A stretch of DNA of 64,000 bases. It comes from a bacterium. Lineage in GTDB: Bacteria; UBA10199; 2-02-FULL-44-16; DYJF01. Below are positions 22,866 to 25,117 of this stretch, one piece after another (positions within the stretch are counted from its first letter, which is position 1; each line of letters opens with the position of its first letter). The position numbers were made by a program, and so were the translations under genes. Below the pieces are notes generated by a model. It did no database searches. It was not told the DNA's origin and saw only the letters and a program-made list of their open reading frames with translations. The stretch is from contig JBGSNL010000039.1 in assembly GCA_041739675.1 (NCBI GenBank), forward strand, positions 9,927 through 73,926. The letters are read 5' to 3'.

Positions 22866-23843
22866 CTATTCAATTGACCATCCCTCATCGTCTACGGAGA
22901 CGGTTATCGGCCCATCGGCAACATTGACGTAGTCGTCGTAGGTATCACTCAGCCATCCCCGCTCGGTCTGATAGACCTTCGCGCCGGAATCCAGGAGTTC
23001 TTGAACCACCTCTTCGTCAGGGTGACCGTAATCGTTTTCGTCGCCAACAGAGATGATCGCAAGTTCCGGGTTGGTCTCTTCAATGAAGTCTTCGTTTGAA
23101 CTCGTTTCGCTTCCATGATGTGCGACTTTGAGGATATCGACATCGCCGACAAGGGGCGCAAGCGAAGTTTCGACGTCAATTGTCTGATACGGCGGATCGC
23201 CTCCGCCGCCGGTCAGATCGGCTTCATGGAGATATCTGAAATCGCCATATGTCAAAAGAAGCACAACGCTTGCGCTGTTTTCGTCATAGGGTTCGATGTC
23301 GATTTTCGTACCGTCCACGAGCTCACCATTCGCAGCCACAACCTCCACTGAAGTGCCGCCAACAGTGAAGTTGTCGCCCGGATGTGCGGTATGCCGCATT
23401 CCATCCGCAGTTTCTGAATATTCTTCGTATGTCGGTGAGTCGCCTTCATGAGTTTCTCCTCTGTCTATTACTCCGTCTGTTGGGATCATATCGTCTGCGG
23501 TTCCCAATATCTGATCCTCGCCTTTGATGACCTCAGCGATCCCACCGATGTGGTCCTCGTGATAATGTGTGGCGACGATGAATTTCAGTTCCCCAATCCC
23601 TTGCTCCTTGAGAAAGGGGAGGATTATGCCGCGCCCGGCATCTAGTGGCCCGGCGTCGATGAGCATCGCCTCATTTGCCGATGAAACGAGCGTCGAATCT
23701 CCCTGTCCGACATCCAGAAATACGAGTTTCAGTTCCTCTTTTGTTTGAGAGTCGGAAACGGAGTCTTCACCGGTGCGGTTCATTGAAATGGGCCCCGCAC
23801 AGCCGGCAACGAATATAATGATAAACAATATGGCGCGCTTCAT
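22866..23843 (-). CDS. ComEC/Rec2-like metallo-beta-lactamase-fold lipoprotein (stand-alone nuclease-type domain)
   Basis: Lipobox VAGC; FLDVGQGDS, THYHEDHIGG, NSASVVL, LKVAHHGS, AIISVG..N.YGHP; no multi-TM channel domain. Confidence 0.9.
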   Translation of the reverse strand: MKRAILFIIIFVAGCAGPISMNRTGEDSVSDSQTKEELKLVFLDVGQGDSTLVSSANEAMLIDAGPLDAGRGIILPFLKEQGIGELKFIVATHYHEDHIGGIAEVIKGEDQILGTADDMIPTDGVIDRGETHEGDSPTYEEYSETADGMRHTAHPGDNFTVGGTSVEVVAANGELVDGTKIDIEPYDENSASVVLLLTYGDFRYLHEADLTGGGGDPPYQTIDVETSLAPLVGDVDILKVAHHGSETSSNEDFIEETNPELAIISVGDENDYGHPDEEVVQELLDSGAKVYQTERGWLSDTYDDYVNVADGPITVSVDDEGWSIE

Positions 23844-23915
23844 ATGCGGGATCTATATGCAAGGGCGTGCCAGGGAGCCGGCAGTCGATTTATCGCGGCG
23901 TTACGAAATCTGAAG

Positions 23916-23952
23916 TGCAGCATTTTCGATCAGAGTGTCCGAAAATCGTGCA
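23916..23952. promoter_or_regulatory. Two tandem enhancer-like boxes between the divergent ComEC-like and Ig-LTD genes
   Basis: TGCAGCA-TTT-TCGATCA (23916-23932, degenerate) and TGTCCGA-AAA-TCGTGCA (23936-23952), 20 bp apart, as at comM. Confidence 0.55.
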
Positions 23953-24000
23953 GCGGCCGCGCCTGTTTTTTCCAAAACGCGTCTTTCAAAAAAAATAGGG

Positions 24001-24016
24001 TGGCACATGAATTGCT
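24001..24016 (+). promoter_or_regulatory. Sigma54 -24/-12 promoter of the Ig-LTD lipoprotein gene
   Basis: TGGCACATGAATTGCT is a near-perfect consensus (GG-N10-GC), followed by SD GGGAGG and ATG 24038. Confidence 0.8.
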
Positions 24017-24037
24017 TTGTATCCCCAGGGAGGTCTT

Positions 24038-25117
24038 ATGAGATTTTTCATTCTTTGTGCCGGCCTGCTTTTCTGTTTCTCGTCCTGCGGCCCCTCTCTC
24101 TCGGATTTCCAGTCGCTTGTCTCGCGCCAGCCGCGGGTCGTCGCTGTGGATCCGGCAGACGGTCTTGTCGTCCCCGCAAAAACGGCGGTGAAAATAGTTT
24201 TTTCTACTGCCGTCGATGCAGCTTCGGTAAGTCCGACATCGTTTGCGGTTGTCAAAGTTGTCGAGAGCATTCCAGAGCCCTGCGATCTCGCCAAAGACGT
24301 TTCAAAAGGGGAGACGGTCGGCTCCTTGGGCAGTTACACAATGTCGGACGACAAGCGGGAGGTGACATTTGAGCCCGATGAACCGTTCGAGGCGGGGGCG
24401 GCCTACGGCATTCTCATAACGATGGATGTGAAGACGCCGGCCGGTTTTCCACTGAATCAAAAGCCCGGCGAAGAGCCGACGCCATTCTGGTCCACATTCA
24501 TGGTCGATGCCGCTGACACCGCGGTGAGCGCAGAAGATGGAGACGGCAGCGACGAAGAAGGCGAAAGCGGAGGAGGAGAATCGGAAACGCCCGCTCCCAA
24601 TCGTCCGGCAAAACTCATAATAAACGAAGTGCTCTACGACGGTTCGGGCGACGAACTCGACGGCAATCTTTTTGTGGAGCTTGTGGGAGACGCCGAAAGC
24701 GACATCGGTGGCTACAAAGTTGTTTTTGTAAACGGAGCGGACGGCGCCGCCACTGAGACAATCGATATTCCTAACAACTCCATCATTGCGGATGACGGAA
24801 TTTTTTTGATTGCCGACAGCAGGACGGGCGCGCCCACACAGACAAATGTTCCCGGCGCGGATTACCTCGACAATTTCGATCCTCAAAACGGCCCCGACTG
24901 TGTTCAGCTGACAGACAATCACGGCGCGCTTCTTGATGTCGTGGGATACGGCTCGCCTCTTCCCCAAAACGCGCAAAACGGGCTCGCGTGTTACGAAACC
25001 GCAACGGGGCCGGATTCCCCCGCGGGAAAAAGCGTTTCAAGAACTGATGGCGCGGACACGGACGACAACGCGGCGGACTTCAAAATTCTCGACTCTCCGA
25101 CGCCGGGCGCAATTTAG
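24038..25117 (+). CDS. Lipoprotein with Ig-like (Big_5/SbsA-type) domain and lamin-tail domain
   Basis: Lipobox FSSC; P.VVAVDPADG...IVFS..VD..SV; acidic linker; LIINEVLYD...FVEL...SVSR..DTDDNAADF...PTPG. Confidence 0.85.
   Translation: MRFFILCAGLLFCFSSCGPSLSDFQSLVSRQPRVVAVDPADGLVVPAKTAVKIVFSTAVDAASVSPTSFAVVKVVESIPEPCDLAKDVSKGETVGSLGSYTMSDDKREVTFEPDEPFEAGAAYGILITMDVKTPAGFPLNQKPGEEPTPFWSTFMVDAADTAVSAEDGDGSDEEGESGGGESETPAPNRPAKLIINEVLYDGSGDELDGNLFVELVGDAESDIGGYKVVFVNGADGAATETIDIPNNSIIADDGIFLIADSRTGAPTQTNVPGADYLDNFDPQNGPDCVQLTDNHGALLDVVGYGSPLPQNAQNGLACYETATGPDSPAGKSVSRTDGADTDDNAADFKILDSPTPGAI

Follow-up and report, generated by a model that had tools for sequence, protein, structure and literature searches.

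The 64,000-nt stretch of DNA analysed here, hereafter the window, stems from a bacterium of the GTDB lineage UBA10199; 2-02-FULL-44-16; DYJF01 (contig JBGSNL010000039.1 of assembly GCA_041739675.1). All coordinates refer to the window unless they carry the label of another contig (C), locus (L) or genome (G), G000 being the source genome. Two divergent genes flank a 194-bp intergenic region (23844-24037; Table 1): one encodes a free-standing metallo-beta-lactamase (MBL) protein of the ComEC type, the other a protein with an immunoglobulin (Ig)-like domain and a lamin-tail domain (LTD). The original prediction, made from the sequence alone, described two acidic lipoproteins transcribed divergently around paired boxes at 23916-23952, and this description was borne out. 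The MBL protein starts with the signal MKRAILFIIIFVAG-C, whose lipobox VAGC (FVAG-C15) conforms to the pattern [LVI][ASTVI][GAS]C; the lipobox of the LTD protein (CFSS-C17) is weaker, with Cys17 conserved in at least 90% of the homologues. Both mature proteins have a pI of 4.05, at net charges of -53 (MBL) and -41 (LTD), which places the MBL protein at about rank two to five in acidity among the 942 long open reading frames (ORFs) of the genome, and this extreme acidity holds across both families. Of the term "surface-anchored", which had been applied to the pair, the lipoprotein part stands, and a position on the outer face of the envelope is putative.

Table 1. Features of the MBL/LTD locus and of the comM sister site, in window coordinates.
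Feature	Position	Strand	Description
MBL gene	22866..23843	-	325 aa, acidic lipoprotein, free-standing ComEC-type metallo-beta-lactamase (nuclease-like) domain
MBL-side sigma-54-like -24/-12 element	23859..23872 (23872->23859)	-	TGGCACgcccTTGC, spacer N4, one base short of N5
Enhancer box 1	23916..23932		17-bp dyad TGCAGCATTTTCGATCA; position weight matrix (PWM) score 15.8
Enhancer box 2	23936..23952		17-bp dyad TGTCCGAAAATCGTGCA; PWM score 21.7
T6 (23966-23971) and A8 (23988-23995) tracts	23966..23995		between enhancer and LTD promoter; read from the sequence
LTD sigma-54 promoter	24001..24016	+	TGGCACatgaaTTGCt, perfect -24/-12 match (TGGCAC-N5-TTGC)
LTD gene	24038..25117	+	359 aa, acidic lipoprotein; ATG at 24038 behind AGGGAGG ribosome site
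Sister site 1, comM	597..688	-	dyads 652-668 and 672-688; sigma-54 promoter TGGCACGgcgcACGC (611->597); comM starts at 582 (-)

The MBL protein resembles the C-terminal nuclease domain of ComEC, but it is not a ComEC/Rec2 channel. Pfam identifies Lactamase_B (8.5e-13), and the match to TIGR00361 (ComEC_Rec2) is limited to model positions 441-660, the C-terminal third (1e-27; 96.6 bits, below the cut-off of 190). The protein consists of a signal peptide and the MBL domain only, without the polytopic Competence domain PF03772. A full-length ComEC is encoded elsewhere in the genome (contig C59, 828-835 aa), and its MBL domain is 35% identical to our protein, which is much more acidic in this comparison (net charge -51 vs -15). 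[quoted passage not shown] In a search with the family profile, 9ic4 is strongest (1.8e-51), with full-length ComEC structures between 1e-49 and 1e-27 and Pce/CbpE at 1.4e-22.

In the alignment to BLACTMg, H93-Y-H95-E-D97-H98, D209 and H242-H243-G-S245 correspond to H598/D600/D602/H603, D700 and H725/S728. The catalytic residues are invariant or nearly so across 63 homologues, and the HHGS motif is invariant; the alpha-beta/beta-alpha MBL fold, the HxHxDH motif, the bridging Asp and the HHGS motif that characterize a ComEC-type MBL nuclease domain are all present. The M. glycerini domain is a two-Mn2+ endonuclease and 5'-3' exonuclease, in which H598, D600, D602, H603, D700 and H725 are needed for DNase activity and transformation according to mutation, S728 is needed in vitro only, and His and Ser of HHGS are the proposed DNA contacts (PMC12455585). 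By sequence and model, the MBL lipoprotein is a ComEC-type two-metal nuclease domain with predicted DNase activity, in agreement with the ComEC-like nuclease identity assigned originally. It shares the fold and the metal-binding and substrate residues of the ComEC domain (PMC12455585, PMC8579336), but differs from it in being a free-standing lipoprotein, which lacks both the competence channel and the OB fold and is genetically tied to the LTD protein and to a third protein, X. Within ComEC, the DNA-binding OB fold acts in cis and raises the activity of the nuclease domain (PMC12455585). The lack of an OB fold in the MBL protein makes it plausible that an accessory partner handles the substrate.

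The second rank of Pce/CbpE in both sequence (1.4e-22) and fold (E 7e-15) could indicate a different enzyme altogether, namely a Pce-like phosphodiesterase without DNase activity, acting on an envelope polymer or another phosphodiester; MBL, LTD and X would then serve envelope remodelling or a stress response under sigma-54 control, with comEA and comM included incidentally. The extreme acidity of the MBL and LTD proteins, which suits DNA binding poorly, would fit such a role, as would the several other highly acidic secreted proteins of unknown function that are controlled by the same boxes (see below). Yet the match to the ComEC nuclease is far stronger (1.8e-51; TMt 0.82 vs 0.67), and the HHGS motif with its proposed DNA-contacting His and Ser is invariant, so that we regard a phosphodiesterase of this kind as distinctly unlikely.

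The LTD protein combines a Big_5 Ig-like domain (residues 30-139; Pfam 1.2e-9), an acidic Gly/Glu linker (161-189) and a lamin-tail domain, which Pfam places at residues 190-305 (PF00932; 1e-8, a marginal pass at 35.9 bits vs a cut-off of 34.3). Most homologues carry a precomputed Pfam LTD match as well, and the Ig and lamin-tail composition of the partner protein was thereby confirmed. Its AF2 model (pLDDT 90) shows two beta-sandwich domains joined by the acidic linker, with the lamin-tail beta-sandwich extending over residues 190-359; a PDB fold search with this model retrieved generic Ig folds only (LdtMt2, CopC, SbsC). An association of a lamin-tail domain with an exported nuclease is known from ExeM of Shewanella and Xds of Vibrio cholerae (PMC6085458), where, however, the LTD is fused to an OB fold and an EEP nuclease in one polypeptide, whereas here it forms a separate lipoprotein beside the MBL protein. 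A part of the LTD protein in the "DNA capture" that had been ascribed to the module is only putative, given its pI of 4.05 and the unclear role of the domain even in ExeM (PMC6085458).

In the intergenic region, the inverted repeat formed by 23916-23928 and 23940-23952 is real, but the boxes are better described as two 17-bp dyads with the consensus TGCAyGA-WWW-TCrTGCA, whose centres lie 20 bp apart. The pair scores 49.7 with the paired-dyad PWM, compared with 6 for the best shuffle. A single 13-mer box arm is not above chance in the window (42 matches vs 33 expected), and neither is the sigma-54 pattern with one mismatch (two found vs about four expected). Box arms or near-consensus promoters alone do not exceed chance here, and the weight of the LTD promoter comes from its position and conservation: the perfect match at 24001-24016 is identical in the congeneric genome, and nearly all relatives have a promoter at that place. 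The LTD transcript is predicted to start near 24027, at the beginning of the AGGGAGG ribosome site. The A9 tract reported at 23987-23995 is in fact an A8 tract (23988-23995), position 23987 being a C. A/T tracts stand at the same place in relatives, and the T6 and A8 tracts may represent an intrinsic bend.

The original prediction also included a sigma-54-like site one base short towards the ComEC-like gene, and this site is found at 23872->23859 with an N4 spacer. Its predicted transcript would start about 4 nt before the ATG, without a Shine-Dalgarno sequence. The fixed N5 spacing is absent from this element in both the source genome and its congener, but present at the same place in family- and order-level relatives, so that N4 is confined to this genus. 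Since both species share the short element nearly unchanged, the N4 spacer is not an assembly error; the site is either tolerated or recently disabled. In the latter case, only the LTD gene would still be under enhancer control in this genome or genus, the MBL-side element would be a decayed relic, and the MBL gene would be silent or expressed from an unrecognised promoter. The strictness with which sigma-54 holds its -24/-12 spacing and the presence of N4 in both species speak for such decay. On the other hand, the two species keep the short element almost identical, although identity of their proteins is only 58% and the intergenic DNA around it differs. The MBL ORF is also unbroken and retains every catalytic residue, and no sigma-70-like promoter was detected by a scan of the intergenic region. 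We consider such decay of the MBL-side element possible, but doubtful.

Of 60 genomes from this class, 44 encode a standalone MBL protein alongside their own ComEC, and an LTD gene adjoins it in 24 of the 29 loci examined. The linked pair that had been proposed as a two-gene module is thus conserved, but a third conserved partner was overlooked: at order and class level, the layout is either an MBL gene divergent, across the enhancer, from an X-LTD gene pair in which X lies between enhancer and LTD, or a co-directional X-LTD-MBL operon, and these layouts make X the third partner of the module. In the source genome, X has moved to contig C31, away from the MBL and LTD genes, and retains its own boxes and a perfect sigma-54 promoter. 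X is an orphan secreted protein of 205 aa with 127 homologues, all annotated as hypothetical and without a Pfam domain; a PDB profile search gave no match. A C-terminal LDALTGGWF and a weak Pfam OEP match (0.03) had raised the suspicion that X is a single TolC/OEP repeat, which was rejected after hhalign of a 101-sequence X profile against the ten OEP repeats of the genome (0.5% probability).

The control elements are conserved together with the genes. Sigma-54 promoters stand on both sides of the enhancer in 19 of 24 divergent loci, 118-122 bp apart in 12 of these, and in 16 of the 24 the dyad pair between the promoters beats all 200 shuffles even when scored with the source genome's own PWM. 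Sigma-54 promoters are also located before the operon of a small ORF and comEA (23 of 24 relatives) and before comM (at least 15 of 25). The dyads themselves drift between genomes, for instance to GTCCGA-N3-TCGGAC in G004, TGCCGCCATTTGCAGCA in G007 and GGAGCGTTTTT in G006, but within each genome the dyads of MBL/LTD, comM and comEA match one another. Similarity is accordingly higher between dyads of the same genome than across genomes (Mann-Whitney U test; comM, p=4e-6; comEA, p=9e-4). The enhancer boxes predicted to be common to comM and the module are thus conserved and co-varying, and comEA belongs to the same set. This covariation within genomes is the strongest available evidence that one activator may co-regulate MBL/LTD, comM and comEA throughout the class, and a predicted enhancer-dependent sigma-54 switch common to the three is well supported by the sequences, the statistics and the comparison of genomes.

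Databases contain many free-standing ComEC-type MBL proteins, with more than 6,000 matches. More distant examples of about 35% identity on Firmicutes-like contigs (L190:5001-6486, L192:5001-6221) are followed by DUF3006, not by LTD or X. Standing in the place of LTD and X, DUF3006 appears to be a different conserved partnership of the same enzyme. Directly downstream of the MBL gene in the window (21949-22804, -) lie two overlapping ORFs that are absent from this place in relatives and that resemble, by eye, a toxin-antitoxin pair of a helix-turn-helix (HTH) plus MNT-type nucleotidyltransferase protein and a DUF86/HepT-type protein.

A scan of the 1.91-Mb assembly with the paired-dyad PWM, with shuffled genomes as control, found 15 sites scoring 16-52 and none in the shuffled genomes (best shuffle 6). 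In most cases, the edge of the boxes and a sigma-54 promoter are 40-63 nt apart; 11 of the 126 sigma-54-like sites of the genome fall within 130 bp of the 15 box-pair centres, compared with about 0.26 expected, and rpoN is present. Besides comM and MBL/LTD, the targets comprise a 63-aa ORF followed by ComEA (HHH_3, 5e-20); protein X with a small beta-barrel outer-membrane protein behind it; three ORF6N genes, of which one shares its operon with a SIR2-like protein; two modules, one MNT-HEPN-like and the other RelE/XRE-like; two clusters, one CsgG-like and the other PEGA/TPR; and several acidic secreted proteins that are large or rich in Cys. A probable further target is pgpA-cinA-thpR-recA, which stands behind a weaker TGGCAT-N5-TTGA element and is divergent from a gene for an 828-aa protein. 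No phosphate- or nitrogen-starvation genes were found among the 15 targets. A role of the regulon as a substitute for the SOS response is unlikely, as a LexA homologue is present according to a search with an approximate query sequence.

A check for the same boxes upstream of the comEC channel gene had also been suggested, and none were found there. A box-less sigma-54-like site, TGGCACAATTACTGC, is located about 1 kb upstream at C59:15584 (-). The distance from this site to the 131-aa ORF at the head of a co-directional 131aa-215aa-comEC string, which is downstream of it, is 57 nt, and comEC could depend on sigma-54 by way of a different activator.

Several features of the regulon's promoters and products were observed in addition. 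The sigma-54 promoters of comM (582-611), the MBL gene (23843-23872) and X have about 14-16 nt from the -12 element to the ATG and no Shine-Dalgarno sequence, and in relatives the comM promoter lies 31-32 nt from the end of the start codon (intergenic regions L012-L026). As read from these distances, the arrangement implies leaderless or near-leaderless sigma-54 transcripts across the class. The 63-aa ORF (MGDNTPKDAFQITEGKDGKSYWTKVG...; L158:1868-2056, C82) between the sigma-54 promoter and comEA has no Pfam match and is kept in 19 of 24 relatives; it may encode a small competence-associated protein that has gone unrecognised. Of the three ORF6N genes, two have a perfect palindrome, GGTCACAAATTGTGACC(GGTTCA), directly downstream of their sigma-54 promoters, at C25:~57330-57350 (-) and C69:~12575-12595 (+), outside the window. 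It could act on top of enhancer control, either as a second operator or as a 5'-UTR hairpin. Eight perfect sigma-54 sites share the sequence TGGCACC[CT]T[TC][CT][CT]TTGC (C31 7566, C34 14005, C53 10977, C60 89, C72 3432, C77 6371, C81 127 and C85 33818), which suggests a repeated promoter cassette; the C53 site stands before a small ORF that is similar to the four-helix-bundle proteins known as "23S rRNA intervening sequence" proteins. Extreme acidity appears to be common to the exported proteins of the regulon, because its Cys-rich 403-aa protein (C71:48653-49864, -) and its 785-aa lipoprotein (C71:57016-59373, -) are also among the most acidic of the genome.

Four bacterial enhancer-binding proteins (bEBPs) in the assembly are candidates for the activator: three tandem REC-AAA-HTH_8 proteins on C28 and one FHAx2-AAA-HTH_8 protein on C49. 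The tandem paralogues form an operon with a PAS histidine kinase (C28:337-5768, -; relatives: L194-L223), and the trio is kept in all seven relatives examined, where it falls into three clean orthogroups. An attempt to assign the activator among these NtrC-type bEBPs failed, as their recognition helices are constant between genomes and do not covary with the drifting boxes. No bEBP is encoded within 8 kb of the module in 14 relatives.

From these observations we propose that MBL, LTD and X form an envelope DNA-processing module, which belongs to a DNA-uptake and recombination programme under sigma-54 enhancer control shared with comM and comEA; we give this proposal, which is built on sequence comparison, somewhat better than an even chance. 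The switch would operate as follows: one activator binds the two 17-bp dyads, loops to the RNA polymerase-sigma-54 complex and switches on the LTD gene, and in most relatives the same enhancer would also switch on the divergent MBL gene. The same activator sites would control comM, the small-ORF-comEA operon and probably pgpA-cinA-recA, among about 15 operons in total. The products of the trio, a ComEC-type nuclease lipoprotein, an Ig/lamin-tail lipoprotein and the secreted X, could then process DNA that is incoming or extracellular, cutting or trimming it at the cell surface or in the periplasm, while the LTD protein and X would handle the substrate or anchor the enzyme and so replace the OB fold assisting the nuclease inside ComEC. 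The sequence elements, the regulon, the synteny, the covariation of the boxes, the fold and the catalytic residues are observed; activator binding, DNase activity, the physical partnership of the trio, its cellular location and the link to transformation are inferred from them. DNA processing is favoured because the enzyme is specifically like the ComEC nuclease and co-regulated with comEA, comM and cinA-recA, and because the presence of comM and recA is meaningful only when DNA is taken into the cell.

Several observations weigh against this proposal. A spacing one base short normally inactivates sigma-54 promoters, the -24/-12 distance being strict, which affects the MBL-side promoter in this genus. 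The sequencing runs in which this sequence occurs are all DNA metagenomes. The pI of about 4 in both lipoproteins (net -53 and -41) is unfavourable for DNA binding without bridging cations, and the second-best structural match, Pce, makes a phosphodiester substrate other than DNA possible. Some relatives, such as G008 and G024, keep the sigma-54 promoters of comEA and comM without having the MBL module. Most regulon members are unrelated to DNA (ORF6N, toxin-antitoxin, SIR2-like, CsgG-like and PEGA proteins), and the genome's comEC (C59) and dprA have no box pairs, nor do its two secretins and its type IV pilus ATPases. The LTD of ExeM is dispensable for extracellular DNA degradation, and its role there is unknown (PMC6085458).

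Part of this evidence would also fit a trio that has nothing to do with transformation and instead scavenges extracellular DNA, or acts on the biofilm matrix, for nutrients or matrix remodelling, while being merely co-induced with the uptake genes. LTDs are found in the extracellular nucleases ExeM and Xds, the MBL and LTD proteins are exported lipoproteins, the regulon includes many secreted proteins and a CsgG-like secretion cluster, and the core uptake genes comEC and dprA lie outside it. Feeding on DNA would, however, require neither comM nor the probable targets cinA-recA, whose products work within the cell on DNA that comes in, and phosphate- or nitrogen-starvation genes were not seen among the 15 targets. 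Moreover, the enzyme is closest to the ComEC nuclease domain and not to known scavenging nucleases. We consider scavenging unlikely on this balance and retain the DNA-processing module as the preferred reading. "Competence regulon", the term of the original prediction, is consistent with the boxes at comEA, comM and probably cinA-recA, but is at odds with the unboxed comEC, dprA and pilus genes and the many non-DNA targets; judged from the sequences, it is the best label rather than a proven one.

Competence-related nucleases at the membrane or cell surface are known from Bacillus subtilis (NucA, with Nin) and Streptococcus pneumoniae (EndA). We propose the MBL protein as a functional analogue of these, that is, as an exported nuclease that may be co-regulated or work with uptake genes, but NucA and EndA have a beta-beta-alpha-metal fold instead of the MBL fold, are controlled by ComK or constitutive instead of depending on a sigma-54 enhancer, and have no LTD or X partners. 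The regulatory architecture is reminiscent of NtrC enhancers such as that of glnAp2, with two 17-bp TGCA...TGCA dyads about 60-110 bp upstream of GG-N10-GC and A/T tracts in between, and NtrC-type REC-AAA-HTH_8 activators are encoded in the source genome. In contrast to glnAp2, one enhancer serves two divergent promoters 118-130 bp apart here, the targets are DNA-uptake, recombination and envelope genes rather than nitrogen genes, and several transcripts are predicted to be leaderless. The ComK, ComX, Sxy/TfoX-CRP-S and QstR regulons have comEA, comM and cinA-recA targets in common with the one described here, which differs from them in its sigma-54 and bEBP logic and in not including comEC, dprA and the pilus genes.

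Sigma-54 enhancers are textbook knowledge. New are the conserved MBL-LTD-X trio, its bidirectional enhancer and the sharing of one sigma-54 regulon by the trio, comEA and comM. No precedent for control of comEA or comM by sigma-54 or bEBPs, or for the trio in such a regulon, was retrieved by a literature search. More tentatively, and with rather low confidence, a dedicated sigma-54 enhancer-binding activator might control natural transformation in this uncultured "Deltaproteobacteria-like" class, which would be the first enhancer-dependent competence regulon, with several leaderless mRNAs and with the trio as an out-of-channel equivalent of the OB and MBL domains.

If our proposal is correct, genes of the competence type can come under the control of a sigma-54 switch that depends on an enhancer and works all-or-none, and the nuclease domain of ComEC would also exist as an independent, regulated envelope enzyme with conserved partners of its own. 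Such an enzyme would provide a simpler system to study how a ComEC-type nuclease handles DNA without the channel, and bacterial lamin-tail domains would gain both a genetic partner and a testable function. The co-varying boxes would furthermore allow regulon prediction over a whole uncultured class of bacteria, and may thereby open a route to the signal that triggers DNA acquisition in these organisms.

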